Part shown: one piece after another, positions 10,240 to 41,891 of the stretch
Layout: every line of letters starts with the position of its first letter
How positions within the stretch are numbered: position 1 is the stretch's first letter
Origin: Firmicutes bacterium UBA993
GTDB lineage: Bacteria > Bacillota > Dethiobacteria > DTU022
Assembly (NCBI GenBank): GCA_002292015.1
Contig: DBBD01000051.1
Location: 1-41,891 of the forward strand
Direction: 5' to 3'
DNA: 41,891 nt
Notes under the pieces: model-generated
What the model saw: only the letters and a program-made list of their open reading frames with translations
Database searches by the model: none
Told to the model about the DNA's origin: nothing
Position numbers and translations under genes: made by a program

Positions 10240-10240
10240 G

Positions 10241-11798: not shown

Positions 11799-11799
11799 A

Positions 11800-14094: not shown

Positions 14095-14371
14095 GGCGCA
14101 CCACCTTCGGGAAAATAATATATTAAAATCAGGCAAAAGCCGTAAATAGATGGTATCAGAAGCTCTTGCTGAATTCAAGTAAATTGGCGGACTGGAATAT
14201 TTGTCAGATCAGGCAGGATTATCTCGGCTCACTGGCGAAAAAAAGATTTGGAGGTTGGGCGCTATGATTTTGGTCAAGGTGCAGCCTTCAAAAACCCGGT
14301 GAAGGGCAAGACAGCACTTCGTTGTCAGGGAAAAAGTTAAATGCATATCTATCGTTAAAAGAATGTTTTAA

Positions 14372-16751: not shown

Positions 16752-16809
16752 AGATTTCGACTACAGTCTGCAGAAGGTTCAAATCATTAAGTTGCAGGGA
16801 GGCTTTTAC

Positions 16810-20285: not shown

Positions 20286-20303
20286 ATGAGGAAGGCCGGG
20301 AAT

Positions 20304-21326
20304 ATGGATTATAAAAAAGCCGGTGTCGATATTGAGGCCGGTGACGCCGCGGTTGAGCGAATTAAGAAACTGGCCCGTTCAACTTTTCGTCCTGAGGTTT
20401 TACAGGAAATCGGCGGCTTCGGCGGTCTCTTTGCCCCTGATCTGAAAAGGATCAGTAACCCGGTTCTAGTGGCCGCTTGCGACGGAGTGGGCACCAAACT
20501 GAAGGTGGCTTTTTCCACCAACCGGCATGACACCATCGGTATCGATTGCGTGGCAATGTGTGTCAACGATCTCTTAGTACAGGGGGCGGAGCCTCTCTTT
20601 TTTTTAGATTACCTGGCCGTTGGCAAGCTTGTGCCGGGCCGGATTGAAGAGATCGTCAAGGGTGTGGCTGCGGGTTGCAAGCAAGCCGGTTGTGCCCTTT
20701 TGGGCGGCGAAACAGCTGAAATGCCGGGCTTTTACCCGCCGGGAGAGTATGATCTGGCCGGCTTTGCGGTCGGGATGGCTGATCGTGACAAAATCATTGA
20801 CGGTTCGGCAATCAGGGAAGGGGACAGTATTATCGGGCTTGCTGCTTCAGGGCTGCATTCTAACGGCTTTTCTCTCGTCAGAAAGGTCCTGCTGGAGGAT
20901 GCTGACCTTAAGCTGGCAGATTTTCAGGCCGCTTTAGGAGAATCACTGGCCGATGAGCTGCTTAAACCGACGACGATCTATGTCCGGCCGGTTCTAAACC
21001 TCCTGCAACAGTGCCGGGTTAACGGCATGGCCCACATAACCGGTGGCGGTCTGATCGGAAACCTGCCGCGGATTATGCCGGGTGGTTTATCGGCCGCAAT
21101 CGAGAAAGGCTCCTGGCCTGTACCGCCAATCTTTCAACTGATTGCCGACCAGGGGTCAATCAATGTAAACGAGATGTTCAGGGTTTTTAATATGGGTATC
21201 GGCTATGTGCTCGTGGTCCCGGATGCTGAGGCTTTGACAGTAATTGATCATTTTGCCGGCTACGGGCAGAAAGCTTACCAGATTGGAAAAGTGACCAGCG
21301 GAGACGGCAGGGTTACTTTCAAATAA
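20304..21326 (+). CDS. purM: Phosphoribosylformylglycinamidine cyclo-ligase (AIR synthetase)
   Basis: MDYKKAGVDIEAGD... N-terminus, DGVGTK, and GGETAEMPG. ATG 20304 follows GAGGAAGG. The ATG at 20286 directly abuts the terminator T-tract. Confidence 0.93.
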   Translation: MDYKKAGVDIEAGDAAVERIKKLARSTFRPEVLQEIGGFGGLFAPDLKRISNPVLVAACDGVGTKLKVAFSTNRHDTIGIDCVAMCVNDLLVQGAEPLFFLDYLAVGKLVPGRIEEIVKGVAAGCKQAGCALLGGETAEMPGFYPPGEYDLAGFAVGMADRDKIIDGSAIREGDSIIGLAASGLHSNGFSLVRKVLLEDADLKLADFQAALGESLADELLKPTTIYVRPVLNLLQQCRVNGMAHITGGGLIGNLPRIMPGGLSAAIEKGSWPVPPIFQLIADQGSINVNEMFRVFNMGIGYVLVVPDAEALTVIDHFAGYGQKAYQIGKVTSGDGRVTFK

Positions 21327-21444: not shown

Positions 21445-22053
21445 ATGAAGCGTATTGCCGTTCTTGCTTCCGGGCAGGGAACCAACCTTCAGGCGATTAT
21501 CGATGCCTCCGAACGAAACGAGTTAGCCGGCGTAGTTGTAATTGTGATCAGCAATTGCGCTGCTGCCCATGCTTTAAAGCGGGCTGAAACGCACCGGATT
21601 AAAGCGCTCTTTATCGATCCTTCCGCGTACAGCAGTCGGGAGAGTTATGATCGCGCAGTGGTTGAGAAATTAAGAGAAGCCGAAGTAGACCTGGTTGTTT
21701 TGGCCGGCTATATGCGCCTGCTTTCTGCTTTCTTTGTCGAATCGTTCCCCTTAAGAATAATGAACATACACCCTTCTCTGCTACCCGCTTTTCCCGGAAC
21801 CGACGGAATTCAACAGGCCTACGATTATGGGGTAAAGGTAACGGGTTGTACGGTACATTTTGTAGACCGGGGCCTTGACAGCGGCCCGGTTATAGTACAA
21901 GAGGCCGTGCCGGTAATTCAGCAGGAGACAGTGGCAACCCTTGAACAGCGGATTCATGCTGCCGAACACCGTATTTACCCGACGGCGATCGATCTTTTTT
22001 GCCGTGACAAGTTAAGGGTAGAAGGAAGAAGGTGCTATATTGTCGACAAATAA
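21445..22053 (+). CDS. purN: Phosphoribosylglycinamide formyltransferase
   Basis: IAVLASGQGTNLQAIID, NIHPSLLPAF, and HFVDRGLDSGP motifs. Confidence 0.93.
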   Translation: MKRIAVLASGQGTNLQAIIDASERNELAGVVVIVISNCAAAHALKRAETHRIKALFIDPSAYSSRESYDRAVVEKLREAEVDLVVLAGYMRLLSAFFVESFPLRIMNIHPSLLPAFPGTDGIQQAYDYGVKVTGCTVHFVDRGLDSGPVIVQEAVPVIQQETVATLEQRIHAAEHRIYPTAIDLFCRDKLRVEGRRCYIVDK

Positions 22054-23590
22054 AAAAAGGGCACTGATCAGCGTTTCAGATAAACGGGGTTTAATCGAAC
22101 TGGCCAGGGAGCTTTCGGGGCTTGGTTATGAGCTGCTAACAACCGGAGGCACTGCAAAGGTTTTAAAAGAGGCGGGCCTAGACGCGAGAAAAGTTTCAGA
22201 AGTAACCGGTTTTCCGGAAATTTTGCAGGGCCGGGTTAAAACCCTGCACCCGAAGATCCACGGGGCAATTTTGGCCCAGACCGCTATCCGGGAACAACAA
22301 AGCGATTTGGAACAATATGGCATTGAGCCGATTGAAATAGTAGTGGCAAATCTCTATCCTTTCGAAGAAACGATTAGCCGGGAAGGGTTTACGCACGAAG
22401 AGGCTGTCGAAAACATTGATATAGGCGGTCCGGCAATGATTCGGGCTGCGGCAAAAAATCACCACTATGTGGCCGTGGTGGTCAATCCTGACCGCTACGG
22501 AGATCTGGTCAGCGAATTAAAGGATAAGGGCGGGATCAGTGCGGAAACAAAAACCAGTCTTGCTGCTGAAGCATTCGCTCACACAGCCGGTTACGATGCG
22601 GCGATTGCCGCTTATTTTAACCGGCTGCCGGCAGCACCTTCCGCTTTATTTCCCCGTCAGCTCAGCATCGGTTTACACAAGGTTCAGGATTTGCGTTATG
22701 GCGAGAACCCACAGCAGCAGGCTGCCCTTTACTCTCGCCCCGGATCAAGGTGTGGCTTGGCATCAGCAGTACAGCTAAAAGGGAAAGAGCTTTCCTTTAA
22801 CAATATTAACGACCTGGGAGCCGCCTGGGATTTAGCTGTGGAATTCGAAAAGCCGACTGTTGTAGCTGTAAAACATGCCAATCCCTGTGGGGTGGGTTCA
22901 GCGGACCTGGTCGGCGAAGCATATCGCCTTGCTCATGATGCTGATCCGGTTTCGATCTTTGGCGGAGTATTGGCGGTTAACACGATTGTTGATGGGGCCG
23001 CGGCGAAAATGATGATTAAAACATTCCTTGAGGTTATTGCCGCCCCGCAGTTTACCGATGAGGCGCTGTCTGTTCTGAGCCGGAAAGAAGATCTGCGGGT
23101 CCTGCAAATTCCGCCACCACTGGAAGAACCGGCCTCGCTCGATTTTAAAGTTGCTGCCGGGGCAGTCCTGATCCAAACTTTGGATCGGGAGCCGGTCCGG
23201 GTAAGGGCAGGTACCGTTGTGAGCAGGCGAAAGCCGTCGGATCAGGAGTGGTTAAGCCTTGAATTTGCTCAAAGGGTAGTTAAACATGTGCGATCCAACG
23301 CTATTGTTATCGCCGGCGGTGAACAAACAATAGGGATCGGCGCCGGCCAGATGAGCCGGATTGGAGCGGCTAAAATAGCGATCGAACAGGGTGGGAAAAG
23401 AGTAAAAGGAGCTGTCCTGGGTTCGGATGCCTTTTTTCCCTTTCCCGATGTGGTTGAAGAAGCGGCAAAAGTCGGTTTAACCGCTATTGTTCAGCCGGGA
23501 GGTTCGCTGAAAGATAAGGAGTCAATCGCGATCTGTGATCGTTACGGGTTGGCAATGGTTTTCACGGGTAAACGCTACTTTAAACACTAA
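22040..23590 (+). CDS. purH: Bifunctional AICAR transformylase / IMP cyclohydrolase
   Basis: KRALISVSDK, TGGTAK and GRVKTLHPKIHG, with a long transformylase domain. TTG start overlaps the purN end by 14 nt. Confidence 0.93.
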   Translation: MSTNKKRALISVSDKRGLIELARELSGLGYELLTTGGTAKVLKEAGLDARKVSEVTGFPEILQGRVKTLHPKIHGAILAQTAIREQQSDLEQYGIEPIEIVVANLYPFEETISREGFTHEEAVENIDIGGPAMIRAAAKNHHYVAVVVNPDRYGDLVSELKDKGGISAETKTSLAAEAFAHTAGYDAAIAAYFNRLPAAPSALFPRQLSIGLHKVQDLRYGENPQQQAALYSRPGSRCGLASAVQLKGKELSFNNINDLGAAWDLAVEFEKPTVVAVKHANPCGVGSADLVGEAYRLAHDADPVSIFGGVLAVNTIVDGAAAKMMIKTFLEVIAAPQFTDEALSVLSRKEDLRVLQIPPPLEEPASLDFKVAAGAVLIQTLDREPVRVRAGTVVSRRKPSDQEWLSLEFAQRVVKHVRSNAIVIAGGEQTIGIGAGQMSRIGAAKIAIEQGGKRVKGAVLGSDAFFPFPDVVEEAAKVGLTAIVQPGGSLKDKESIAICDRYGLAMVFTGKRYFKH

Positions 23591-24929: not shown

Positions 24930-24974
24930 CGACCGATGGAATCAACTGATGCGGGTTGGCGAGGTGATCAGGAA

Positions 24975-26153
24975 ATGGACAATGCCGTGGTAGTTGGCTA
25001 TGCCCGTACGCCCTTCGGGCGGTTTATGGGGCCGCTAAGCGCGATTCCGGCGGTTGATCTGGGGGCAATGGCGATTCGCGAAGCGCTCCGGCGTTCTGCG
25101 CTTAGAGCGGAGTTGGTTGACAACGTGTTGATGGGGATGGTGATCCAAGCCGGGGCTGGACAGATTCCCTCCCGCCAGGCCACAATCAAAGCCGGACTAC
25201 CGGCTTCAGTCCCCTCAGAAACGGTTAACAAAGTTTGTGCGTCCGGTTTGAGGGCGATAAATTTAGGTGAACTGCTGATTCGGTGCGGCGAAGCCAAGGT
25301 AATTGTCGCCGGCGGTATGGAGAATATGAGTGCTGTTCCTTATTATTTACCGAAAGCGAGAGCGGGCCTGCGCACGGGCGACGCCCCCCTTATTGATGGA
25401 ATGGTTCACGATGGTCTGTGGTGTCCCTTTCACCAGGTGCATATGGGGGTACATGGCAGTGCAGTACCGGCGGAAGAGGGGATAACGCGGGAACAGATGG
25501 ACCGCTTCGCCCTGCGCAGCCATCAACTGGCAGTAAAAGCAGCTGAAAGTGGCTTGCTGAATGATGAACTTTTTGCCGTAACCGCTCCGCAGCGCAAGGG
25601 AGATTCTTATGTCATCGATCGCGACGAACTACCTCGGGCTGATACTACTTATGAAAAGTTAGCAAAATTGCCGCCTGCTTTTGAAAAAGAAGGGTTGATT
25701 ACAGCCGGTAACGCACCGGCAATCAGCGACGGAGCCGCAGCGGTCGTTTTAACTTCGAAAAAAAACGCCGCCGAATTGCAGTTGCAGCCCCTGGCTGAAA
25801 TAGTGGCACACGGTGCAGTTTCGCTTGAACCTCGCTATATCGCCACGGTACCGCTTGCAGCGGCAGAGCTGGCCCTCAACAAGGCGGGACTTAAAAGTGA
25901 CGATCTTAAATTAATCGAAATCAACGAAGCTTTTGCCGCCGTAGCCCTGACCTGTATCAAGCTGGGAGGCTGGAATAAAGAGATTGTTAATGTTAACGGC
26001 GGCGCTGTTGCGCTCGGGCATCCGATCGGAGCCAGCGGCGCCCGGATCCTGATCACCCTGATAGCCGAGTTGCGCCGGCGCGGCGGCGGCTACGGATTGG
26101 CAACAATTTGCAGCGGCGCAGCCCAGGGCGAAGCGGTGATCATCAAAGCTTAG
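24975..26153 (+). CDS. Acetyl-CoA C-acetyltransferase (thiolase)
   Basis: ATG 24975 follows GAGGTGA. Active-site Cys context VNKVCASGLRAI, plus NEAFAAV, GGAVALGHPIGASGARI and C-terminal CSGAAQG. Confidence 0.9.
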   Translation: MDNAVVVGYARTPFGRFMGPLSAIPAVDLGAMAIREALRRSALRAELVDNVLMGMVIQAGAGQIPSRQATIKAGLPASVPSETVNKVCASGLRAINLGELLIRCGEAKVIVAGGMENMSAVPYYLPKARAGLRTGDAPLIDGMVHDGLWCPFHQVHMGVHGSAVPAEEGITREQMDRFALRSHQLAVKAAESGLLNDELFAVTAPQRKGDSYVIDRDELPRADTTYEKLAKLPPAFEKEGLITAGNAPAISDGAAAVVLTSKKNAAELQLQPLAEIVAHGAVSLEPRYIATVPLAAAELALNKAGLKSDDLKLIEINEAFAAVALTCIKLGGWNKEIVNVNGGAVALGHPIGASGARILITLIAELRRRGGGYGLATICSGAAQGEAVIIKA

Positions 26154-26174
26154 TTGCTCAGAGGAGTATGGCCC

Positions 26175-27302
26175 TTGGAGTTAGTGTTATCAGAATATCA
26201 TCAAAAACGATGGGAAGAATTTAAACTTTTTGCCGATTCGGAGCTTGACCGGGGCGGGCAGTTCCCGCATGAGAACCTAAAAAAAGCCGGGGAGCGCGGT
26301 TATATGGGGCTGCCGATACCGCAAGCGTGGGGCGGAAAGGGTGAAGATTTTCTCACTTACATCCTGATGCTTGAAGAAGTATCCCGGGTTTGTGCCTCCA
26401 CGGGCGTTATTCTGTCCGTGCACACCTCGGTCGCTACTTTTCCCCTGCTCTATTTTGGATCGGATGAACAAAAGAATAGGTTTCTGCCTGATCTGGCAAG
26501 CGGTAAGCTGCTTGGCGCTTTTGCCCTCACTGAGGCCGGGGCCGGCTCTGACGCTGCGGCGCTTGCCGCGACTGCCACAATAGTTGCCGGAGGCTACTTG
26601 CTGAATGGAAGCAAGATGTTTATAACCGGGGGAGGAGAAGCCGATCTCTTCACCGTTTTTGCCACGCTGGACCGCTCGCTGGGCAGTAAAGGAATTACTG
26701 CTTTTTTAGTTGAAAAAGGTTGTCCCGGACTGGTTGCCGGTCCGCCGGAAAGGAAAATGGGGCTTAACCGATCACATACGGCCGAGATCAGGATGGAGGA
26801 TCTTTTTATCCCGGCGTCGAACAGGTTGGGAGATGAGAAGGCTGGTTTTAACATTGCCATGGCTCTACTTGACGGGGGCAGGATCGGTATTGCGGCCCAA
26901 GGGCTCGGTTTGGCCAGGGCTGCGCTGGAATTTACGATTAAGCATTTAAAGAAGCAGGAGAGAGCAGGCATAAAAACCGGGCAGTGGTCAGCATTTGTTG
27001 TCGCCGACCTGGCGGCAAAGGCTGAAGCTGCCCGCCTACTGATCTACAAAGCGGCTAAGGCTAAGGACAGCAGAAGCAGTTGCACCAGGGAAGCCTCTAT
27101 GGCCAAAGTATTTGCTACCGACCTGGCGATGGATGCGGCCACAAAATGCCTCGACCTCTGCCACAGCGCTGGCTGTGGAGAAAATAATCCGTTGAATCGC
27201 TATTTCTGCGATGCCAAAGCGCCGCAGATTTACGAAGGATCGAACCAGATCCAGCGGATTGTTGTAGCCAGGGAGCTGTTAAGACAATTTAATTTAAGCT
27301 AA
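26175..27302 (+). CDS. Acyl-CoA dehydrogenase paralog
   Basis: ACAD fold motifs (GAFALTEAGAGSDAA, FITGG, catalytic-region QIYEGSNQIQR). Start is uncertain: TTG 26175 is 8 nt after GAGGAG, while the ORF opens at TTG 26154, directly after the thiolase stop. Confidence 0.85.
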   Translation: MELVLSEYHQKRWEEFKLFADSELDRGGQFPHENLKKAGERGYMGLPIPQAWGGKGEDFLTYILMLEEVSRVCASTGVILSVHTSVATFPLLYFGSDEQKNRFLPDLASGKLLGAFALTEAGAGSDAAALAATATIVAGGYLLNGSKMFITGGGEADLFTVFATLDRSLGSKGITAFLVEKGCPGLVAGPPERKMGLNRSHTAEIRMEDLFIPASNRLGDEKAGFNIAMALLDGGRIGIAAQGLGLARAALEFTIKHLKKQERAGIKTGQWSAFVVADLAAKAEAARLLIYKAAKAKDSRSSCTREASMAKVFATDLAMDAATKCLDLCHSAGCGENNPLNRYFCDAKAPQIYEGSNQIQRIVVARELLRQFNLS

Positions 27303-27326
27303 ACAGACGCACAAGGAGGTTATTTG

Positions 27327-28466
27327 ATGAATTTTGTATTGACGGAAGAGCAGGAAATGACCCGCAAGATGGTGAGAGATTTTGCTGAAAAAGAGCTGAA
27401 GCCTGGTGCTGAAGAGCGGGATGATAAGGAACAGTTTTCCCGGGAGATTTTTGACAAGATGGGCCGGCTCGGACTGACCGGTATCCCCTGGCCGGAAGAA
27501 TATGGCGGCGGGGGCTGCGATTTTATCAGCTATGTAATTGCGGTGGAGGAGCTTTCCCGGGTTGACGCATCAAGCGGAACAACCTTATCGGCGCATACTT
27601 CGCTGGCCGGATGGCCTGTATTTAATTATGGAAACGAAGCGCAGAAGAAAAAATATCTGGAGCCGATGGCCCTGGGGGAGAAACTCGGTGCCTACGCCCT
27701 GACCGAGGCGACAGCGGGGACCGATGCCGCCAATCAGAAGACCACCGCAAAACTTGATGGCGATTGTTACCTGCTCAACGGAAATAAGCTTTTTGTCACC
27801 AACGGCTCAGAAGCAGAAATATATATCGTATTTGCTGTTACCGACAAGGAGAAAAAAGCAAAAGGAATCAGCGCGTTTATTGTTGAAAAAGGGGCGCCCG
27901 GCTTTTCATTCGGCAAAAAAGAGCGTAAGATGGGGTTGCGCTCCTCGCCGACACTGGAGCTGATTTTTGAAAATTGCGCGGTTCCGAAAGAAAACCTGCT
28001 TGGCGCCGAAGGGGAAGGTTTTAAAATTGCCATGAGCACTTTAGATGGCGGACGCAACGGCATCGCTGCCCAGGCAGTCGGTATCGCCCAGGGGGCAATG
28101 GAAGAGGCAATTAATTATGCCAAGAGCAGAGAGCAATTCGGTCAGCCAATTGCTAATTTCCAGGCTATTTCTTTCATGTTGGCCGACATGGGAACAAAAA
28201 TTGAAGCAGCCCGCCTCCTAACTTACCAGGCCGCATATTTAGAAAGCGCCGGCCTGCCCTACAGTAAAGCATCGGCAATAGCCAAGCTTTTCGCTGCCGA
28301 GACGGCTATGGAAGTAACGACTAACGCGGTTCAGGTTTTTGGCGGTTACGGCTACACCCGCGACTACCCGGTCGAGCGTTTTATGCGGGATGCCAAGATT
28401 ACTCAGCTATACGAGGGCACCAGCGAGGTCCAGCGCCTGGTAATTTCGCGCCACTTGCTGTCATGA
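27327..28466 (+). CDS. Acyl-CoA dehydrogenase (butyryl-CoA dehydrogenase-like)
   Basis: [11 protein letters not shown]..., [20 protein letters not shown] and [14 protein letters not shown] 27327 is 7 nt after AAGGAGG. Confidence 0.9.
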
Positions 28467-28535
28467 AAAAAGTTTTCGCCGGCAATAAACGTTAAAAATA
28501 AGTGAACATAGCATACTCTTGAAAGGGTGTTTTAG

Positions 28536-29063
28536 ATGGCTTTGAAGAAGCCGGGTTTGATCATGGTGTTTACCGGGGACGGCAAAGGAAAAACCACTGC
28601 CGCAACCGGTCAGGCATTAAGAGCGTTGGGACACGGTTACAGTGTTTATATGATCCATTTTATGAAGGGCCGCGAATACGGCGAGTTTATCGCTATGGCA
28701 AATATGCCCAATCTGACCCTGGTGCGGGCCGGTCGCGATAATTTTGTAAATCGTGATCACCCGGAGCAGATCGACATCGAATTAGCTCTTGAAGGTTTTG
28801 CCAAAGCCAGAGCTGCGGTTTTAAGCGGAAAATACGATTTGGTCGTACTTGATGAAATTAACGTTGCCGTGGACTACGGCTTGATCGCCGAGGCCGATTT
28901 ATTGCAGCTTCTTCAGCAAAAGCCGCCGGAGGTTACGATAATTTTAACCGGCCGCGGAGCCTCGACCGAGCTGGTCAAACGGGCCGATATGGTCAGCGAA
29001 ATTCTGGCCGTTAAACATCACTATAGCCAAGGAGTAGAGTGCTGCCCGGGCATCGAGTATTAA
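28536..29063 (+). CDS. cobO: ATP:cob(I)alamin adenosyltransferase, CobA/CobO/BtuR type
   Basis: 175 aa with P-loop-like FTGDGKGKTTAA, HFMKG, and LVVLDEINVAVDYGL. Confidence 0.85.
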   Translation: MALKKPGLIMVFTGDGKGKTTAATGQALRALGHGYSVYMIHFMKGREYGEFIAMANMPNLTLVRAGRDNFVNRDHPEQIDIELALEGFAKARAAVLSGKYDLVVLDEINVAVDYGLIAEADLLQLLQQKPPEVTIILTGRGASTELVKRADMVSEILAVKHHYSQGVECCPGIEY

Positions 29064-29103
29064 AATATCCCGCCAGTAAAGCTGAAGGTTACGGGGTGAG
29101 TGC

Positions 29104-30057
29104 ATGCAGCAGTTAGTCGAAGAACTGCTCAAGGGTAACAGGCGTGCTGCAGCTCGCCTGATTACTCTTGTTGAGAATGATGACCGGCGAAAATTTGAAC
29201 TTTTACAAGCTATTTATCCACATACGGGACACGCTTACGTGGTGGGTATTACCGGCGCACCCGGTGCCGGTAAAAGCTCGCTTGTTGATAGGTTGCTCCA
29301 GGTGATCCGGGCCGAAGGTTTAAGCATCGGCGTTATCGCGGTAGATCCAACCAGTCCCTTCAGTGATGGGGCGATTCTGGGCGATCGGATTCGAATGCAG
29401 GATCACGCTCTTGATCGGGAGATCTTTATTCGCAGCATGGCCACAAGGGGCAGCCTGGGAGGGCTTTCAAGGGCAACGAAAGAAGCAATCCAGGTACTGG
29501 ATGCTTTTGGCAAAGACCTGGTATTAGTTGAAACTGTCGGTGTGGGGCAATCGGAAGTTGATATTGTAAAAACTGCCGATACTACTATCGTGGTGCTCAC
29601 CCCTGCCGGCGGGGACAGCGTTCAAACCCTGAAAGCGGGAATAATGGAAATCGCTGATCTTTTTGTGGTCAATAAAGCTGACTTGCCGGGAGTGGATAGA
29701 ACCGTTACCGAGATTAACATGATGCTTGATATGAAAAATGACGTACCATGGCGTCCGGCAGTTATCCCGACGGTTTCGATCAGGGGCGAAGGAATCGAAA
29801 AAATCTGGTCTTCCATAAAAGAACACCGTCACCACCTTGAAACAAGCGGGCGCTTAGCTGAAGCGCGCCTGCGACGGGTAAAACGGGAGTTAACTGAACA
29901 GGTTGAATACCTGGTAAAAAGCCGCTTTTGGGAAGAGGTAAAAGAAAAGTTTTTCTTAGGTGAGATTTTTGAAAAAATAGCCCGCCGCGAAAAAGATCCC
30001 TACAGTTCAGCTTGTGAACTGCTGGATTCAACTAATTTCTTTGAGCGTAAAAGCTGA
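29104..30057 (+). CDS. meaB: MeaB/ArgK-type G-protein chaperone for B12-dependent mutases
   Basis: [13 protein letters not shown]-loop [37 protein letters not shown] and NKAD. Confidence 0.9.
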
Positions 30058-30070
30058 AGCAGGTGATTTT

Positions 30071-31735
30071 ATGAGCTATTTTAAGAGTAATCCCGATCTT
30101 GAAGCCAGCCTGAAAGAGTGGCAGGAGAAGATTTCAGCAATGGCTGAGCGACCGGGTCCTTTTACCACACTATCCGGTGTGCCGGTTAAGCAGATCTATA
30201 CTCCTCTTGATCTGAGAGAGTTGGATTACGATGCTGATCTTGGCCTCCCCGGCTCTTACCCCTATACCAGGGGGGTGCAGGAAAATATGTACCGGGGGCG
30301 CTACTGGACAATGCGGCAGTTTTCCGGCTTTGGCGACGCGATCGACTCGAACCGTCGCTACCGTTACCTGCTTGAGCAGGGGCAAACCGGATTGTCGGTT
30401 GCGTTCGATCTGCCGACGATCATGGGCTACGATTCCGATCACGAGCGATCTTTGGGTGAAGTCGGGCGCTGCGGCGTTGCAATCGATTCGCTTCAGGATA
30501 TGGAAATTCTTTTCAACCAGATTCCCTTGGATCAGGTAACCACTTCGATGACGATCAACGGGCCTGCGGCGATACTTTGGTGCATGTACCTGGCCAATGC
30601 CCAAAATCAGGGGGTTGGCCTGCACCAGGTCGGCGGGACTATCCAAAATGATATATTGAAAGAATATATTGCCCAAAAATCATGGATTTTTCCGCCCGAG
30701 CCATCGATACGCCTGATTACCGATATATTTGCTTTTGCCGCAGATCACGTACCGAAGTGGAACACGATCAGTATCAGCGGTTACCACATCAGGGAAGCCG
30801 GTTCAACCGCTGCACAGGAGCTTGCATTTACCCTGGCTGACGGATTTGCCTACGTTGAAGCCGGCCTTGCAGCCGGTTTAAATGTTGACACGTTTGCGCC
30901 CCGTCTCTCTTTCTTTTTTAACGCCCATATCGATTTTTTTGAAGAAATATGCAAATATCGGGCAGCCCGCCGGATCTGGGCCCGCCACCTGAAAGAACGT
31001 TACGGCGCCAAAGATCCCCGATCCCTGAAGCTGCGTTTTCACACCCAGACAGCGGGGTGCAGCCTGACCGCCCAGGAACCGGAAAATAACATTGTGCGTA
31101 CCACGATCGAGGCTCTTTCGGCAGTCCTCGGCGGAACCCAATCTTTGCATACCAATTCCATGGACGAGGTGTTAGCGCTGCCCACGGAAAAAGCGGTTAC
31201 CATCGCCTTGCGAACGCAGCAGATCATCGCCTATGAAAGTGGCGTGGCTAACACAATCGATCCGCTTGCCGGCTCGTTTTATGTAGAAACGTTAACCGAC
31301 CGGATGGAGCAGGAAGCGGAAGCTTATTTTGCAAAGATTGAGCAGCTTGGCGGGGTTTTGAAGGCGATCGATTGCGGCTTTTTTCAGCAGGAGATCGCTG
31401 ATGCCGCTTATCTTTATCAGCAGGCGGTGGATAAAAGGGAACGCCTAGTTGTCGGTGTCAATAGCTTTAACAGCGAAGAGAAACCGCAGCTCGAGCTTTT
31501 AAAGATAGATCCTGCTGTAGAGTCGCGACAGGTGGAGCGGCTTAAAAAACTGCGTGAAAAACGTGATAATAACGCTGTCTGCAGTGCCCTGGCCGGGTTG
31601 AAAGTTTGCGCAGCGACAAACGAAAACCTGATCCCAAAAATCCTGGCTGCGGTTAAATGCTATGCCACTGAAGGGGAGATCGTCTCCGCTCTGAAGGAAG
31701 TGTTCGGCGAATATCGGGAGAAGCCCCTATTTTAG
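30071..31735 (+). CDS. icmA: B12-dependent acyl-CoA mutase large (substrate-binding) subunit, isobutyryl-CoA-mutase-like
   Basis: TIM-barrel mutase motifs ([39 protein letters not shown]). The discriminator positions are Phe (30320-30322) and Gln (30674-30676). ATG 30071 follows AGGTGA. The upstream 19 codons in the track overlap meaB. Confidence 0.8.
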
Positions 31736-31750
31736 GATGGAGGTGGGGGA

Positions 31751-32149
31751 GTGAACAGAAGAAAAATCAGGGTGCTGGTGGCCAAACCGGGGCTTGACGG
31801 TCATGACCGCGGGGCCCGAGTTGTGGCCAGGGCCCTGCGTGATGCCGGCATGGAGGTTATTTACAGCGGTTTACACCAAACCCCTGAGCAGGTGGTTGAA
31901 ACTGCCCTGCAGGAGGATGTGGAAGTTGTCGGTTTAAGTATCTTATCCGGCGCGCACATGACCCTTGTCCCTAAAATAAAGCGACTCCTGGTTGAAAATT
32001 CCATGAACGATGTACTGCTGGTGGTTGGTGGAATCATTCCCGAGGAAGACGCCGCTGCATTAATCGCCGGGGGCTTTGCCGGCCAGGTTTTTACCCCCGG
32101 TGATTCGTTGGAAAAGATCTGCAATTATATCAGCAGTAACTTTGAATAA
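31751..32149 (+). CDS. icmB: Acyl-CoA mutase small subunit (B12-binding domain)
   Basis: 132 aa with base-off/His-on motif [15 protein letters not shown] and GGIIP. GTG start behind GGAGGTGGGGGA. Confidence 0.85.
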
Positions 32150-36089: not shown

Positions 36090-37490
36090 ATGACCACGGG
36101 CGATAATAATCGGGGCGATAGAGCCTTAAATTTTGATATCGATAACTGGTTGCTGCTGCAGGCTATTATCGATTCTCTGTCCGATGCGGTATCAGTTGTT
36201 GATGAAACAGGCAAAGGAATCATGATCAACCGGGCCTATAAGCGGATTACCGGCATGACGGAAGATCAGGTCTTGCATAAGCCGGCCACCGCCGATATAG
36301 CCGAAGGCGAAAGTGTGCACCTGAAGGTTTTAAAGACCGGCCAGGCGATCAAAGGCGTACGGATGAAAGTAGGGCCGTTGCGCCGCGAAGTAATAGTCAG
36401 CTGTGATCCCCTATATATTGGCGGCAAAATCAAGGGCAGCGTGGGAGTAATCCACGATATATCGGAACTACGTTTGGTAATGGAGGAACTCGAGCGCACC
36501 CGCTGGCTCGTCCGTAAACTAGAATCAAAATATACCTTTGAGGACATCATCGGGAACAGCAATAAGTTACAGAAAACGATCGACCGGGCTAAGCAGGCCG
36601 CCGCTACACCGGTATCAGTTATGTTGCGGGGTGAATGCGGAACTGGCAAGGAGCTCTTTGCCCACGCCATTCACCATGCGAGCGACCGCAAAGATCAACC
36701 TTTTATCCGTGTCAACTGCGCCGCGCTCACTGATACGCTACTGGAAAGTGAACTTTTCGGTTATGGAGACGGTGCTTTTACCGGGGCCAAAAAGGGCGGA
36801 AGAAAAGGCTATTTTGAAGAAGCAACCGGCGGTACACTTTTCCTCGACGAAATTGGCGCTATGGGGGCGGAGGCACAGGCAAGGCTGCTTAGAGCACTGC
36901 AGGAGGGTGAAATAATCAGGGTCGGTGAATCGAGAAGCCGGCAGATTGATGTAAGAATTATTGCCGCTACCAACGCTAATTTAGAAAAGCTAGTCGAACG
37001 GGGTCTCTTTCGCAACGATCTCTATTACCGGCTTAATGTTTTTCCGATCCAGATGCCGCTTTTAGCAGAGATTAAGAGCGATATACCACTTTTGGCCAAC
37101 TTTTATGCAACACGGTATGCACAGGAATACGGACGCAATGCGGTCGAGATTGCCCCTGAAGTTTTCCGGAAATTAAAGAGCTATGATTGGCCCGGTAATA
37201 TCCGGGAGCTGCAGAACGTGATGGCGCAGGCAGTGATTAATCTCGATCGCCGGGAAAATGTGATGAGAGTGGAACAGGTAACTTTACCTGTTGCCACGCC
37301 CGCTACGGAGTCGCTCCGGTTCAAGGAACCGTTGGCGGGCAATCTAAAGGATCTGCACCGGGACTGGGAAAAGATGGTGTTGGAAAAGGCTATTAGCGCC
37401 GCAGGAGGCAACAAAGCTGAAGCAGCCAGGGTTCTCGAGATTTCTATTCGTAGCCTCTATAATAAATTACACCGGCACCGGATGATTTAA
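36090..37490 (+). CDS. Sigma-54-dependent transcriptional activator with N-terminal PAS sensor domain
   Basis: PAS-like N-terminus (IIDSLSDAVSVVDETGKGIMINRAY...). AAA+ core has Walker A GECGTGKE, ESELFGY and the GAFTGA loop. C-terminal Fis-type HTH (GGNKAEAARVLEISIRSLYNKL). Starts 2 nt after the ligA stop. Confidence 0.9.
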   Translation: MTTGDNNRGDRALNFDIDNWLLLQAIIDSLSDAVSVVDETGKGIMINRAYKRITGMTEDQVLHKPATADIAEGESVHLKVLKTGQAIKGVRMKVGPLRREVIVSCDPLYIGGKIKGSVGVIHDISELRLVMEELERTRWLVRKLESKYTFEDIIGNSNKLQKTIDRAKQAAATPVSVMLRGECGTGKELFAHAIHHASDRKDQPFIRVNCAALTDTLLESELFGYGDGAFTGAKKGGRKGYFEEATGGTLFLDEIGAMGAEAQARLLRALQEGEIIRVGESRSRQIDVRIIAATNANLEKLVERGLFRNDLYYRLNVFPIQMPLLAEIKSDIPLLANFYATRYAQEYGRNAVEIAPEVFRKLKSYDWPGNIRELQNVMAQAVINLDRRENVMRVEQVTLPVATPATESLRFKEPLAGNLKDLHRDWEKMVLEKAISAAGGNKAEAARVLEISIRSLYNKLHRHRMI

Positions 37491-37506: not shown

Positions 37507-37522
37507 TGGTATGAAAATTGCA
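37507..37522 (+). promoter_or_regulatory. Candidate sigma-54 (-24/-12) promoter
   Basis: TGGTATGAAAATTGCA compared with consensus TGGCACG-N4-TTGCA. The GG and GC dinucleotides are at the canonical spacing. Located 17 nt after the activator stop codon. Confidence 0.55.
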
Positions 37523-37763: not shown

Positions 37764-38369
37764 TTGAAGGTGGATCGAGCAATCACTGAGTTTAGGTTAC
37801 ATGGCCGGGGTGGCCAGGGTATCGTTGTTGCTGCAGCTATTTTTGCCGAAGCGGTTTTTATCGATGGCCACTATGCCAGAGCTTTTTCACTGTTTGGCGC
37901 CGAAAGACGCGGTGCGCCGGTAACGGCCTTTATTCGAACCGGTTCGGAGCGTCTGATGCCGCGCAGCCGTATCTACAATCCTGACTGTGTAGTGGTGTTT
38001 GATGCAACAATCAGTGGAAATACTTTGTATGCCGGTCTGAAAGACGAAGGAAAACTGCTCTTAAATGCCGGCCCGGGCCGGCAGGAGATGGTGCCACCCG
38101 ATCTTTTTCTAAACCAACGTTTCCAAATATTTAAGATTAACGCCCGCGATATTGCCTGGAAGCACCAGCTGGCGATTGGCAGTTTTCCGATGATTAACAC
38201 AGTAATGCTGGGCGCAATGGCTAAGGTCAGCGGGCTGGCGACGATCGAGGCGTTGATCAAGTCAATTCGGCAAAGAGTCTCGGCCAGTATTGATGCCAAC
38301 ATTAAAGCGGCCATCGACGGATACGAAAATGTAGAGGAGGTGTCATGTTTTGTTAGAGGCACCAGTTAG
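37764..38369 (+). CDS. 2-oxoacid:ferredoxin oxidoreductase, gamma subunit
   Basis: FRLHGRGGQGIVVAAAIFAEA... is a typical POR/VOR/KOR gamma N-terminus. GTG start behind AAGGGGGG. Confidence 0.85.
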   Translation: MKVDRAITEFRLHGRGGQGIVVAAAIFAEAVFIDGHYARAFSLFGAERRGAPVTAFIRTGSERLMPRSRIYNPDCVVVFDATISGNTLYAGLKDEGKLLLNAGPGRQEMVPPDLFLNQRFQIFKINARDIAWKHQLAIGSFPMINTVMLGAMAKVSGLATIEALIKSIRQRVSASIDANIKAAIDGYENVEEVSCFVRGTS

Positions 38370-39897
38370 AGAAGTAACTGCCTATGCCCGCGGTACAGTG
38401 GCGACTGCGATCAACAAAACAGGGGAATGGCGCTTTCTGACGCCGGTCCGGCAGGATCGCTTATCACCCTGTCGCCAGGGTTGCCTGCTGCAGGGCGAAG
38501 TTCCGGGTTGGTTGGATGCGGTTAAAAAGGAACAGTGGGAAGAGGCCTGGAAGGTTATGAGCCGTAACAATCCCTTCCCGGCTTTAACCGGCTATGTCTG
38601 CTATAAACCCTGCCAGGAGAATTGCAACCGCGAACAGCTCGATCAGGGGATCGCTATCCAGGAGGTGGAGAAGGCTATCGGCGAGTGGCGACACACAAAC
38701 TATAAACCGCGAAAAAGGTTAAGAGAACGGAAGCAGAAAATTGCCGTGATCGGTTCGGGACCGGCCGGTTTGAGCTGTGCCTATTACCTGGCGGAAGCAG
38801 GATATGCAGTAACCGTTATTGAGCGTGCGGAGCAAATCGGAGGCATGCCGGCCCTCGGTATCCCGGAATACCGTCTACCGCGATCCATCCTGAAACGGGA
38901 ACTGGAGATCTTAGAAAGCGAGGGTATCGTTTTTATCAGGAACAGCGCCCTGGGGCGTGATTTTGAGCTTAAAGAACTCTATGTTGACTTTGATCAGGTC
39001 TTCCTGGCCACCGGGGCTTGGATGCCGCGGATGTCCGGTATACCGGGTGAAGAGAGTAAAAACGTATATAACGCCCTGGACTTTTTAAGCAGCTTCAATC
39101 GGGGTTTACGCCAGGAGCTGGGCCGGACTGTTATCGTTGTCGGTGGCGGTAACGCTGCTATAGACAGCGCCCGCGCCGCCCTGCGAGTAGACGGAGTACA
39201 CCACGTAACCCTGCTTTACCGGCGCAGCCGGGTGGAAATGCCGGCGGATCAGCATGAAGTGGAAGCTGCTGTAAAAGAAGGGGTAGAGCTAATCTTTAAT
39301 GTTTTGCCGCGCCGCATCGATCTTGCAGGCGGCAGGGTAAAGGGGGTTACTGTTGATCAGAGCCGCACGGATCGAGATGGCTTAATGGTGGACAGCTCGG
39401 TAAATTTTTACCGCGAGTGCGATACGGTGATCATGGCTCTCGGGCAATTGGCGGATTACAGTGTGTTCGGTAACCTGGAGACTAAACAAAAAATATTTGC
39501 GGGGGGTGACCTGATCAGCGGTCCGGCTACCGTTCCGGAGGCGATCCGGGCCGGTCGGCTGGCGGCCATCGGTATCAGGTCAGTTTACGAAGATTTACCG
39601 GAGCAAGATTTGGGAATACTTTCAAAGGAAATGGTTTCCTTTGAAGAGTTGAACCTGGCGGCCAAGTTTAACTTGGCACTGCAGCAAAAAGAGGCCGATC
39701 CGATCAGGGAAGCGGAGCGCTGCCTCGGCTGCGGGACCTGTAACTCCTGCGGTATCTGCTATCTTTTCTGCCCGGACCTTGCTGTTGATCAGGTCAGCGG
39801 AAGATTTGAATTTAACCTCGACTATTGTAAGGGTTGCGGGATCTGTGTCAAAGAATGTCCGGCTCGGGCATTGGGTATGGAAGGAGGCGGAAACTGA
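38350..39897 (+). CDS. Chimeric OFOR delta subunit: PorD-like N-terminal arm, GltD/NfnB-like Fe-S/FAD/NAD(P)H module, and 2x[4Fe-4S] ferredoxin domain
   Basis: Contains INKTGEWRFLTPV; NPFPALTGYVCYKPCQENC; two dinucleotide folds (KIAVIGSGPAGLSCAYYLAEAGYAVTVIE and TVIVVGGGNAAIDSARAA); and C-terminal CNSCGICYLFCP plus CKGCGICVKECP. TTG start is 9 nt after GAGGAGG. The stop overlaps the alpha-subunit ATG (TGATG). Confidence 0.8.
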   Translation: MLEAPVREVTAYARGTVATAINKTGEWRFLTPVRQDRLSPCRQGCLLQGEVPGWLDAVKKEQWEEAWKVMSRNNPFPALTGYVCYKPCQENCNREQLDQGIAIQEVEKAIGEWRHTNYKPRKRLRERKQKIAVIGSGPAGLSCAYYLAEAGYAVTVIERAEQIGGMPALGIPEYRLPRSILKRELEILESEGIVFIRNSALGRDFELKELYVDFDQVFLATGAWMPRMSGIPGEESKNVYNALDFLSSFNRGLRQELGRTVIVVGGGNAAIDSARAALRVDGVHHVTLLYRRSRVEMPADQHEVEAAVKEGVELIFNVLPRRIDLAGGRVKGVTVDQSRTDRDGLMVDSSVNFYRECDTVIMALGQLADYSVFGNLETKQKIFAGGDLISGPATVPEAIRAGRLAAIGIRSVYEDLPEQDLGILSKEMVSFEELNLAAKFNLALQQKEADPIREAERCLGCGTCNSCGICYLFCPDLAVDQVSGRFEFNLDYCKGCGICVKECPARALGMEGGGN

Positions 39898-41036
39898 TGG
39901 CATTAAAGATGATCAGCGGCAACCAGGCCGCAGCAATAGCAGTTCAGCGCGTAGGAGTTGACCTGGTTACTGCCTACCCGATTACACCTCAGACTGCCAT
40001 TGTGGAGGCGCTCGCTGATTTTGCCGCTAACGGTGAACTCGGCGGTGATTTTGTCAGTGTAGAATCTGAATATGCGGCGTTAGCCTGCTGTAACGGCGCC
40101 GCAGCGACCGGTGCGCGGGTTTTTACAGCGACCGGTTCGCATGGACTGGCCTATATGCATGAGATGATCCACTGGTGCAGCGGAGCCCGGCTTCCGATAG
40201 TGATGGTCAATGTCAATCGCACAATTGGTGCTCCCTGGTGTCTTGATCCGGACCAGGGAGACAGCCTGAGCCAAAGAGATACCGGCTGGCTGCAGCTTTA
40301 TTGTGCCAACGGACAAGAAGTTTTTGATTCGGTGATCCAGGCTTTTATCCTGGCCGAAAAGCTGTTGCTGCCTTGCATGGTGGTCTTTGATGGTTTTTAC
40401 ATCTCGCATACCTATGAAGTTGTAGATGTGGCCGATGAAGAAATAGTTCGTAAATTGGTTGGCCCACCTGCATTTGCGCCCCAGGTAATACCGGGTCAGC
40501 CGGGTAACCTGCACGGCCTTTCAACCGGTGAAACGCAGCTGAAACTGGTTAAAGAGCGGCATCAGGCAATGTCAGGGGTTCCTTTGTTGTTTGCTCAAAT
40601 CAACGCCGCTTTTAACGAACAGCTTGGTCGGAGCTACAACATTGTGGAGGCGATGATCCCGCCGGGAGCCAAAAGAGCTGTTGTTGCCGTCGGCGCGACT
40701 GCGGAAACAGTCCGGTGGGCATTACCGGCACTTGATCATACGGGCCTAATCCAGCTACGCCTCTTCAGGCCATTTCCGGCGGCTGAAATCCGAGAAGTCG
40801 TCAGGGAAAAAGGGTTAAATGAGTTGCTGGTGATTGATCGCAACTGCTCGGTCGGCATGGGGGGGATTTTTGCCCAGGAGCTGCGAAGCGCTCTTTATGG
40901 AATGAAAAGCCCGCCGCTGGTTCGCAGCCTGATTTTGGCGGGCGGCGTGGATCTGACCGAGAATATGCTGCTTGATCTGCTTCAATCAACTGGGCCAGAA
41001 GAGAACTTCGCTCTTAGGTGGGGAGATGAATTTTAA
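39897..41036 (+). CDS. 2-oxoacid:ferredoxin oxidoreductase, alpha subunit
   Basis: MALKMISGNQAAAIAVQRVGVDLVTAYPITPQT... is a canonical alpha N-terminus. The upstream 21 codons in the track overlap the previous gene. Confidence 0.88.
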   Translation: MALKMISGNQAAAIAVQRVGVDLVTAYPITPQTAIVEALADFAANGELGGDFVSVESEYAALACCNGAAATGARVFTATGSHGLAYMHEMIHWCSGARLPIVMVNVNRTIGAPWCLDPDQGDSLSQRDTGWLQLYCANGQEVFDSVIQAFILAEKLLLPCMVVFDGFYISHTYEVVDVADEEIVRKLVGPPAFAPQVIPGQPGNLHGLSTGETQLKLVKERHQAMSGVPLLFAQINAAFNEQLGRSYNIVEAMIPPGAKRAVVAVGATAETVRWALPALDHTGLIQLRLFRPFPAAEIREVVREKGLNELLVIDRNCSVGMGGIFAQELRSALYGMKSPPLVRSLILAGGVDLTENMLLDLLQSTGPEENFALRWGDEF

Positions 41037-41891
41037 ATGAATATAGCAGAATTGAACCGTCAGAACGAAATTATTTTTCCGGGGCACAATGCCTGCCCGG
41101 GTTGTGGCGCTGCGCTTGCGGTTCGCTATCTGACCAGGGCTCTTGGTGAGAATATCGTCCTGGTACTGACCGCTTCATGCTGGAGCATCATATCCGGAAT
41201 GCCGCCTTTGACAGCGCTGAAATGCCCGATCTTGCATTGTCCGTTCCCGAGCGCCGGATCTGTCGGCAGCGGTGTACGCAGGGGGCTGAACGTCAGGGGT
41301 CATAACGATACAACTGTTGTAGTGCTGGCTGGTGACGGCGGTACTTTCGATATCGGGCTGCAGGCTCTCTCCGGGGCGGCACAGCGCAATGAAGACTATA
41401 TTTTCGTCTGTTATGACAACGAAGCTTATATGAACACGGGGATGCAGACCAGTTCGGCCACACCTTTCGGCGCTCGCACCAATACAGCGCCCTACCCGCT
41501 CTACAAAGAGGGTGAGAAGAAGGATATTATGCAGATCATGGCGGCGCATGCGGTACCCTATGCGGCCACAGCCACGGTAGCCTTTCCGGCCGATCTGGAA
41601 GCAAAATTAAAAACCGCCCAATCGATCAGGGGATTCCGTTTTATTCATATCCTTGTCCCCTGCCCACCGGGATGGGGGACTGAATCTGCCGATACAGTCG
41701 AGGTTTCAAGGCTGGCCGTTGCCACAGGATTTTTTCCGCTTTATGAAGTCCGAAATGGAGCTGTTTGGAAGCTAACTGTTCCGGCCGACATGAAAAACGT
41801 CTCCCTCAGCGAGTATTTGAACCGGCAGCGCCGCTTCAGGGAGATGGACAATCGCCGCCTAAACGAGCTGCAGCACGAAATTAATCGCGAT
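41037..41891 (+). CDS. 2-oxoacid:ferredoxin oxidoreductase, beta (TPP-binding) subunit, 3'-truncated by the window end
   Basis: This ORF is not in the track because no stop codon is reached. ATG 41037 is 1 nt after the alpha stop, and the frame stays open to 41891 (285 codons). Contains FPGHNACPGCG and the TPP motif LAGDGGTFDIGLQALSGAAQRNEDYIFVCYDNEAYMNTG. Confidence 0.85.
   Translation, partial: MNIAELNRQNEIIFPGHNACPGCGAALAVRYLTRALGENIVLVLTASCWSIISGMPPLTALKCPILHCPFPSAGSVGSGVRRGLNVRGHNDTTVVVLAGDGGTFDIGLQALSGAAQRNEDYIFVCYDNEAYMNTGMQTSSATPFGARTNTAPYPLYKEGEKKDIMQIMAAHAVPYAATATVAFPADLEAKLKTAQSIRGFRFIHILVPCPPGWGTESADTVEVSRLAVATGFFPLYEVRNGAVWKLTVPADMKNVSLSEYLNRQRRFREMDNRRLNELQHEINRD

Follow-up and report, generated by a model that had tools for sequence, protein, structure and literature searches.

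2-Oxoacid:ferredoxin oxidoreductases (OFORs) can be joined to pyridine nucleotides by an attached flavoprotein module. One example is the pyruvate:NADP+ oxidoreductase (PNO) of Euglena and Cryptosporidium, a single-chain pyruvate:ferredoxin oxidoreductase (PFOR) fused to a cytochrome-P450-reductase-like domain for flavin mononucleotide and flavin adenine dinucleotide (FMN and FAD). Another is the 2-oxoglutarate:NADP+ oxidoreductase (KGOR) of Azoarcus evansii, an NADP+-specific enzyme that reportedly has three subunits of 63, 62 and 37 kDa, suggesting a KorAB-type core, and is specific for 2-oxoglutarate; its 62 kDa subunit is said to carry FAD, Fe-S clusters and an NADPH site, and its size is near that of the protein family considered below. 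KGOR establishes that an OFOR containing FAD can reduce a pyridine nucleotide; PMC10134865 cites the KGOR paper (Ebenau-Jehle, Boll and Fuchs 2003, J Bacteriol 185:6119) and groups 'KGOR-alpha' with GltD-like proteins. The predicted Por-Bfu enzyme of Dehalococcoides has a HydBC-like bifurcating core (PMC9304861), and the Vanoni review of GltD-like proteins covers GltS, dihydropyrimidine dehydrogenase (DPD), Nfn and AegA, with no OFOR-linked member. Here we analysed a 41,891-nt stretch of DNA from Firmicutes bacterium UBA993, an uncultured member of the Bacillota (contig DBBD01000051.1 of assembly GCA_002292015.1; hereafter the window), in which a four-gene OFOR cluster carries a 515-residue open reading frame (ORF) that merges the delta subunit with a flavoprotein (hereafter the chimera).

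This locus shares individual features with each of the described systems. Like KGOR, it would combine a thiamine pyrophosphate (TPP)/Fe-S OFOR with FAD and direct NADP+ reduction; unlike KGOR, the window has a Por/Vor-type four-gene set. The first-pass annotation had named a flavoprotein-containing 2-oxoglutarate:NADP+ oxidoreductase of Azoarcus as a precedent, and PMC10134865 confirms that citation. When a Rubrivivax homologue of the chimera was used as the query, the best 120 matches were all from Burkholderiales at ≥85% identity, with no named Azoarcus or Aromatoleum homologue among the matches listed. The NADH-dependent phenylglyoxylate dehydrogenase PadEFGHI of Azoarcus/Aromatoleum has the same archaeal-type four-subunit core, its PadE gamma, PadF delta, PadG alpha and PadI beta matching the window proteins, and pyridine nucleotide reduction would be flavin-dependent in both. 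Pad, however, consists of five separate subunits with a normal 78-residue delta (PadF) and its extra component on a polypeptide of its own, it is NAD+-specific, and the window proteins scored far under the Pad equivalog cutoffs. PNO and Por-Bfu likewise link an OFOR to pyridine nucleotides through a flavoprotein module, but in neither does a GltD-like module lie inside the delta subunit. A full-text literature search, whose scope did not extend to the primary Azoarcus papers, returned no paper describing a split-delta architecture, and sequence and fold searches of the PDB returned no entry with the split-PorD/GltD arrangement. No characterised enzyme was found for which this architecture has been demonstrated, and the family is apparently uncharacterised. 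Since the delta subunit is merged with an NfnB/GltD-like NADPH:Fe-S flavoprotein, we consider it probable that this Por/Vor-type OFOR complex reduces NADP+ itself and is not dependent on, or at least not restricted to, free ferredoxin.

The chimera gene (38350-39897, + strand, as are all features below unless stated otherwise) starts with TTG and encodes, in this order, a PorD arm, a GltD/NfnB-like Fe-S and FAD/NADPH module, and a PorD 2x[4Fe-4S] domain. It is preceded by the OFOR gamma gene of the PorC/VorC type (37764-38369; Pfam POR 128 bits; TIGR02175 PorC_KorC 162.8 bits, cutoff 81.1) and followed by the alpha gene (39897-41036; Pfam POR_N 211 bits and PFOR_II 52 bits), for which the closest NCBIfam models were PorA_Arch (320 bits) and VorA (301 bits). 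The beta gene, for a subunit with TPP and a [4Fe-4S] cluster, comes after alpha and runs off the window end (41037-41891; Pfam TPP_enzyme_C; PRK11864 VOR beta 353 bits, PorB 323 bits). A GGAGG at 38336-38340 lies within the gamma 3' end with a spacing of 9 nt to the TTG, gamma and chimera overlap by 20 nt (gamma stop TAG at 38367-38369), the chimera stop is fused with the alpha start as TGATG (39895-39899), and the beta ATG stands immediately after the alpha TAA. Gene map and profile scores thus agree with the first-pass annotation, which had placed a 515-residue ORF between gamma and alpha, tightly coupled on both sides.

Both ends of the chimera are PorD-like. The C-terminal domain (aa 462-511, 39733-39882; CNSCGICYLFCP ... 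CKGCGICVKECP) was recognized by Pfam as two Fer4 domains at aa 463-508, and among ferredoxin-type NCBIfam models it scored best on PorD_Arch (65 bits) and PorD_KorD (TIGR02179, 54 bits). It holds two CxxCxxCxxxCP motifs (C464/467/470/474 and C493/496/499/503), and all eight cysteines were kept in 95/95 of the homologues used for conservation counts, which were 43-76% identical to the window protein. The N-terminal arm (aa 18-34, 38401-38451; ATAINKTGEWRFLTPVR) has T24, G25, W27 and P32 kept in 95/95. We assessed the arm by excising the flavoprotein in silico and rescoring the remainder on TIGR02179 (curated cutoff 60.05 bits, profile length 78). The intact chimera scored 53.8 bits, matching through its C-terminus only (aa 462-511), while constructs lacking aa 41-460 or aa 37-454 scored 76.2 and 73.1 bits and covered profile positions 7-75 of 78. 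The C-terminus without the arm gave 54.4 bits over positions 26-75, and the arm is therefore worth ∼20 bits. Against a solved PorD, chain G of the Methanosarcina acetivorans PFOR (PDB 9bt4), the excised construct aligned without a break over residues 12-80 of 85 (68.9 bits), compared to residues 32-80 (52.0 bits) for the C-terminus alone, and the arm segment ATAINKTGEWRFLTPV paired with STLANKTGGWRNFRPV of 9bt4_G. The insertion point is a few residues ahead of the first cluster Cys of PorD. With PorD/VorD proteins the chimera thus shares the arm motif NKTGxWRxxxP, the two CxxCxxCxxxCP motifs including 'DYCKGCGIC', the gene slot between gamma and alpha, and the role of sole delta in the operon. 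It differs from them by ∼420 residues of flavoprotein that separate the arm from the first cluster motif, by its length (515 aa, compared to ∼80-105 aa for an ordinary PorD), and in clearing the TIGR02179 cutoff only once the flavoprotein is removed. These results uphold the proposed architecture of a delta subunit interrupted by a flavoprotein, and the profile hidden Markov model mapping that had been suggested as a check recovered POR gamma, Fer4_20, Pyr_redox_2 and the two Fer4 domains in the order stated.

The module between the two PorD portions comprises a GltD/NfnB-type Fe-S domain (Fer4_20, PF14691; aa 39-116, 38464-38697; 50.5 bits, cutoff 25.8) and a FAD/NAD(P)H region (Pyr_redox_2, PF07992; aa 130-402, 38737-39555; 105 bits, cutoff 26.1) that was modeled with a predicted local distance difference test (pLDDT) score >90. 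Within the latter lie the FAD motif GSGPAG (38746-38772), the NAD(P)H motif GGGNAAID (39142-39165) and YRR (39217-39225), and these, together with GGD, were invariant in the 95 homologues. In NfnB/NfnL and GltD, the Fe-S domain starts with 'EAxRC-xx-C-x4-C-x3-CP', and continues with 'C-x3-C-x3-C', and the FAD-proximal cluster has a Glu for its fourth ligand (PMC12018979; Vanoni review). In the chimera, the contiguous N-terminal set (CxxCx4Cx3CP ... Cx3Cx3C plus Glu) was not found; the N-terminal Fe-S region holds only five cysteines (C41, C45, C84, C88 and C92) besides E107, and the first Cys pair is not there. The full set is nonetheless present in split form, because E454-A-x-R457-C458-L-x-C461-G (E454-A-E-R-C458-L-G-C461 in the window protein, 39709-39732) stands 3' of the flavoprotein, directly ahead of the first PorD motif. 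E454, A455, R457, C458 and C461 were kept in 95/95 homologues, as were all seven cysteines (41, 45, 84, 88, 92, 458 and 461), and E107 in 94/95. The 'complete' GltD/NfnB-like module of the first-pass annotation therefore stands as regards Fer4_20 and the FAD/NAD(P)H folds, while its first Cys pair has moved to aa 458/461. This apparent displacement is a new detail beyond what that annotation described.

Several comparisons support the assignment of the displaced pair. A permuted construct, in which '...PIREAERCLGC' was joined to 'RLSPC41...', was rescored on NfnB, NfnI and GltD; it was contiguous over NfnB ALEEAQRCLQCPTHPC, aligning across 'EAQRCLQC', and the scores rose from 211 to 228, from 195 to 210 and from 177 to 186 bits, respectively. 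C458 and C461 pair with C562 and C565 of StnC, whose authors defined its GltD domain as residues 102-565 (PMC10482914), so that this domain closes on the Cys matching C461. In NfnB and NfnI the residue aligned to E107 is the Glu of 'LERF', in StnC it is K170, and this position provides the non-Cys ligand of the proximal cluster in homologues (PMC10482914, PMC12018979). We infer from these alignments that the GltD Fe-S domain is itself split and that the seven cysteines and E107 equal the ligands that hold two [4Fe-4S] clusters in NfnL. Once the eight cysteines of the PorD part are added, the chimera should carry four clusters and one FAD. Since the EAxRCxxC pair is located after the flavoprotein and beside the PorD clusters, the PorD and GltD parts are interleaved.

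An AlphaFold2 model of the chimera reached a pLDDT of 89.6 and a predicted template modelling score (pTM) of 0.88. In Foldseek searches against the PDB, its closest matches were NfnA of NfnABC (9bov_A, 9n5u_A) and StnC (8oh5_C) with TMq values of 0.75-0.76, and NfnL, NfnB and GltD followed with 0.65-0.68. With NfnB/NfnL, GltD and the N-terminal module of DPD (4ylf_B, 5jca_L, 2vdc_G), the chimera shares the Fer4_20 and FAD/NADPH fold at ∼32% identity, the seven Cys plus Glu ligand set, and the YRR motif of the NADPH type, which our alignments showed to be common to the NADPH-dependent NfnB, NfnI and StnC. It differs from this group in that EAxRCxxC is C-terminal to the flavoprotein rather than N-terminal, and in that it sits within a PorD, without a NfnA, GltB or dihydroorotate dehydrogenase partner. 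StnC and the NfnA of the Bfu-type transhydrogenases (8oh5_C, 9bov_A, 9n5u_A) were also the best sequence matches, with up to 247 bits; they have the same 'EAxRCxxCG' after the flavoprotein, and in both cases additional [4Fe-4S] clusters come after the GltD module as a linear chain. The GltD-like FAD of StnC and NfnA is explicitly described as non-bifurcating, and NADPH electrons enter the linear [4Fe-4S] chain (PMC10482914, PMC12018979). By analogy, the FAD of the chimera may be a non-bifurcating one that exchanges only hydride with NADP(H). The two types differ in that StnC and NfnA have a NuoG/Fdh-like domain and dock to the bifurcating core BfuBC (the chimera has no NuoG domain match and no BfuBC genes nearby), in the proximal cluster ligand, which is Lys in theirs and Glu in the chimera (94/95), and in the PorD arm and OFOR partner, which occur only on the side of the chimera.

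The chimera gene belongs to a broad family. A search over a set of 5.8 billion proteins returned 6271 matches, and of the best 120, which were examined, almost all were full-length (514-565 aa, 42-76% identity over 95-100% of the query); the homologues were drawn from independent NCBI, JGI, ENA and Logan assemblies. In a scan of one genome per species we found at least 594 relatives, with metagenome-assembled genomes (MAGs) of Syntrophomonadaceae as the nearest matches (63% identity). The best 80 loci, analysed with phmmer and hmmalign, contained 82 chimera-like ORFs (L-numbers below are labels for loci of relatives). The arm (TGxW) was present with OFOR gamma, alpha and beta adjacent in 62/82 ORFs, and absent with no OFOR genes nearby in 18/82. 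Single ORFs had the arm with no OFOR genes seen (L019, with the gene at a contig edge) or lacked the arm next to an OFOR that has its own separate delta (L053). Arm presence thus went together with OFOR adjacency (62/1 versus 1/18; Fisher's exact p = 6e-16), and none of the 63 arm-bearing loci contained a separate PorD-like ORF. Gene order was gamma-chimera-alpha-beta in 23 loci, from Bacillota, Gemmatimonadota, Krumholzibacteriia, Zixibacteria and some Desulfobacterota, and gamma-alpha-beta-chimera in 34 loci, from Actinomycetota including Streptomyces and from Alpha-, Beta- and Gammaproteobacteria including Bradyrhizobium, Rubrivivax and Aquabacterium. A genome search for the split-PorD architecture had been suggested as a check, and it turned out not to be rare, as it spans at least 10 phyla and two operon orders.

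Existing annotation reflects parts of this architecture. JGI names for homologues join 'GltD-like' with 'OFOR delta subunit', the source name of the Rubrivivax homologue is 'NADPH-dependent oxidoreductase with 4Fe-4S binding domain, in cluster with PFOR', and proteobacterial and actinobacterial arm-bearing homologues bear this name or that of NCBIfam NF009410 (PRK12771, 'NAD(P)-binding protein'), names that give no function. NF009410 has the same overall architecture, the model spanning aa 18-439 and the C-terminal ferredoxin. On this model the chimera scored 421.3 bits (profile 27-469 and 501-563), under the 516-bit cutoff, and the window protein therefore falls in a Bacillota branch that is divergent and has its operon genes in another order.

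Some loci departed from the common pattern. Armless paralogues without OFOR genes nearby (L034, L037, L058, L062, L064, L066, L069, L070, L072, L076, L077 and L079-L082) consist of a GltD-like module, EAxRCxxC and a 'LDYCKGCG' ferredoxin domain; the copies of Dehalococcoidales and Chloroflexota have a greater length and, like StnC and NfnA-Bfu, a Lys in place of E107. In L053, an armless GltD-ferredoxin homologue with a divergent C-terminus (5878-7899) is followed, 1.7 kb downstream, by a complete OFOR cluster with its own delta (9573-12463), an arrangement that may represent an intermediate or alternative pairing of the two. In the alphaproteobacterial loci L021, L022 and L026, gamma and alpha are in the same frame, one stop codon apart (∼3620-3640 in each). 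We considered a fused 63 kDa gamma-alpha subunit in such Bradyrhizobium-type loci and rejected it, since L021 has a real TAG with a new ATG 9 nt on, and gamma and alpha are therefore separate genes with no read-through fusion. In L084 (GCA_964389365.1), the closest named relative at 72% identity, the sigma-54 activator (6612-7440) and OFOR alpha (9548-10689) are each broken into two ORFs, which are either pseudogenes or MAG assembly errors.

Taken together, direct electron transfer to NAD(P)+, as the first-pass annotation had proposed, is the most economical reading of the sequences, considering that the FAD/NADPH motifs are invariant, the ligand set is complete, and the 63 arm-bearing loci contain no separate delta. 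In such an enzyme the arm (aa 18-34) would anchor the chimera on alpha/beta just as an ordinary delta is anchored. The 2-oxoacid would be decarboxylated on the TPP of beta, and single electrons would pass from TPP to the beta [4Fe-4S] cluster, to the two PorD clusters (C464/467/470/474 and C493/496/499/503), and on to the distal GltD cluster, with C458/C461 as the bridge, probably together with C41 and C92. From there they would move on to the FAD-proximal cluster (three of C45/C84/C88/C92 plus E107), and the FAD would gather two electrons and deliver a hydride to NADP+. Several points weigh against this proposal. The literature search found no biochemical data on any family member. Passing electrons of -500 mV to NADP+ (-320 mV) wastes energy, which is odd for a probable syntroph that needs reduced ferredoxin, and the PorD clusters might also serve free ferredoxin. 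The closeness of C458/C461 to C41/C92 and all cluster-cluster distances are predictions, and a preference for NADP over NAD is suggested by one motif, YRR. The substrate clues also conflict, in that fumarase and malic enzyme downstream and an acetyl-CoA synthetase upstream in L003 point to pyruvate, while the ELFV dehydrogenase of relatives and a VOR-like beta point to branched-chain 2-oxoacids. Of note, the YRR equivalent (aa 290-292) is replaced by CSQ, CPQ, SLE, YPG, HRE, CAE or ALE in the arm-bearing L019, L028, L033, L040, L041, L068 and L083, with SLE, ALE, CAE and HRE occurring in distant members of the family; these may be NAD+-type variants of the same enzyme.

We also considered whether the chimera could be something other than a single functional polypeptide. 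That a sequencing or assembly frameshift joined separate delta and flavoprotein genes can be dismissed for all practical purposes, given the more than 100 independent full-length homologues from NCBI, JGI, ENA and Logan, the 63 arm-bearing ORFs across species genomes, the motif invariance in 95 sequences, and the position of the arm and the ferredoxin domain at opposite protein ends, which one frameshift could not yield. It is quite unlikely that the enzyme is an ordinary ferredoxin-dependent OFOR whose flavoprotein is non-functional or an accessory for NADPH-driven re-reduction or protection. Ferredoxin could still dock, with the PorD clusters and arm intact, and many homologues occur in aerobes (Streptomyces, Burkholderiales), where protection could matter. 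However, the FAD, NADPH and cluster-ligand motifs are invariant in the 95 sequences, across phyla, which argues for a catalytic role under strong selection, and the insert stands exactly in the electron path.

Two further possibilities raised by the first-pass annotation concern the direction and branching of electron flow. We regard a flavin-based bifurcating or confurcating OFOR, in which a NfnB-like FAD couples 2-oxoacid oxidation or synthesis to NADP(H) and a second carrier (ferredoxin or NAD), as very unlikely. In its favour, the core of the flavoprotein shares homology with NfnB/NfnL, which have a bifurcating FAD, the proximal ligand is Glu as in NfnL and not the Lys of the non-bifurcating Bfu NfnA, the Arg of 'IPEYRL' (R175) is conserved, and Por-Bfu enzymes are predicted to bifurcate with pyruvate (PMC9304861). 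In NfnAB-type bifurcating enzymes this Arg is hydrogen-bonded to the FAD N5; the same Arg occurs in the non-bifurcating StnC and NfnA, where it is far from N5 (PMC12018979). Yet GltD carries the same Glu ligand and Arg and does not bifurcate (Vanoni review). StnC and NfnA-Bfu, the closest proteins by sequence and fold, have a non-bifurcating FAD, and a single Fe-S chain leaves the FAD of the chimera. Bifurcation of the NfnAB type needs a second path through NfnA ([2Fe-2S] plus FAD), and neither the window nor the operons of L001, L003, L084, L086 and L087 contained a NfnA/PyrK-like or BfuBC-like gene. Equally unlikely is a bifurcating or confurcating FAD in delta that links NADP(H) both with the 2-oxoacid/acyl-CoA couple at -500 mV and with a higher-potential partner docking at the NfnA site; the complex would then be either a 2-oxoacid synthase driven by NADPH or an OFOR whose reduction of NADP+ depends on another carrier being used as well. 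An anabolic 2-oxoacid synthase, in which an acyl-CoA is reductively carboxylated with electrons from NADPH while the neighbouring ELFV dehydrogenase pulls the reaction by aminating the product to the amino acid, is likewise unlikely. OFORs are reversible, the dehydrogenase is co-transcribed in most close relatives, and by our own estimate the potentials could near each other if the 2-oxoacid were micromolar and both CO2 and the NADPH/NADP+ ratio were high. Under standard conditions, however, the reaction is ∼180 mV uphill (acyl-CoA plus CO2/2-oxoacid ∼-500 mV, PMC9304861; NADPH -320 mV). In addition, the regulator is similar to sigma-54 activators of catabolic pathways, for example PrdR, the genes around the operon serve catabolism (acyl-CoA dehydrogenases, thiolase, mutase, fumarase, malic enzyme), and the dehydrogenase gene is not in the operon of the window itself.

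The direct NADP+-reducing OFOR that we favour is probably regulated by the sigma-54-dependent activator encoded just upstream (36090-37490; Pfam PAS at the N-terminus, Sigma54_activat, AAA_lid_14 and HTH_8). Its best NCBIfam match is PrdR (408 bits, under the cutoff of that model), and it is syntenic with the OFOR operon in L001, L002, L004, L005, L006, L084 and L086. The activator-gamma intergenic region contains a candidate sigma-54 (-24/-12) promoter, TGGTATGAAAATTGCA (37507-37522), the sole + strand match to TGG[CT]A[CT]N5T[TC]GC[AT] in the window, and near-identical elements directly follow the activator gene in L004, L005 and L006. A loose pattern allowing 2 mismatches was not enriched in the window (17 matches versus 23 expected), and only the tighter pattern, with its position and conservation, is informative. 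In the three relatives with the conserved element, it precedes an ELFV dehydrogenase gene that the window is without.

The operon starts with this 345-residue ELFV dehydrogenase (Leu/Phe/Trp/Val branch) in 6/9 close relatives; the gene was not found in the operon of the window or of L084. It scored 344 bits as ScyB-like and 70-75 bits on glutamate dehydrogenase (GDH) models. Further genes in relatives are a fumarase, a malic enzyme, a fumarate-reductase-like pair and a CoA-transferase 3' of beta, and an acetyl-CoA synthetase directly upstream in a Dethiobacteria homologue. Alpha and beta scored best on Por/Vor models and not on Kor. Because of these scores and the ELFV dehydrogenase in relatives, the substrates are likely branched-chain or hydrophobic 2-oxoacids, possibly pyruvate. 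2-Oxoglutarate, suggested by the genes of succinyl-CoA, fumarate, malate and pyruvate metabolism that relatives carry downstream, was rejected, as alpha and beta scored far better on Por/Vor than on Kor and the dehydrogenase is not of the GDH type. The layout can be likened to the sigma-54/BkdR-controlled bkd operon of Bacillus subtilis, and the enzyme would be the NAD(P)-linked equivalent, in an anaerobe, of the bkd system.

Elsewhere in the window, a block at 24936-32149 is syntenic with the OFOR operon in relatives and encodes a thiolase, two acyl-CoA dehydrogenases (AcrC-like), a CobO adenosyltransferase, a MeaB GTPase, an acyl-CoA mutase large subunit (30014-31735) and a 132-residue ORF (31751-32149). 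The last occupies the slot of the B12-binding small mutase subunit in L001, L084 and L087, and the split B12-dependent mutase would be either a methylmalonyl-CoA or an isobutyryl-CoA mutase. A possible second gamma/chimera copy at 21445-23590 (202- and 516-residue ORFs) proved to be purN/purH. The purine operon also contains a H+-translocating membrane pyrophosphatase gene (18257-20245; Pfam H_PPase, 920 bits), located between purF (16792-18210) and purM (20286-21326). A 201-residue ORF on the - strand (13573-14178) has a C-terminal match to the DUF2148 ferredoxin domain (104 bits) and no evident tie to the OFOR.

The chemistry of a NAD(P)+-reducing OFOR is not unprecedented, and the value of the present finding lies in the size of the family, in redox annotation and in the interleaved Fe-S modules. 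With regard to the evolution of modular Fe-S proteins, GltD interrupts a PorD, and the Fe-S domain of GltD in turn appears to be completed from the far side of the flavoprotein; the chimera is thus a defined structural target for the coupling of OFORs to pyridine nucleotides. If our interpretation is correct, many bacteria, among them relatives of Bacillota syntrophs, Desulfobacterota, Gemmatimonadota, Actinomycetota including Streptomyces, and Burkholderiales, would send 2-oxoacid electrons to NADP+ by a built-in wire and not by ferredoxin. Models of genome redox and energy metabolism that score these operons as ferredoxin-dependent POR/VOR would then need to be changed, and such an enzyme could explain the use of OFORs by aerobes without low-potential ferredoxins.

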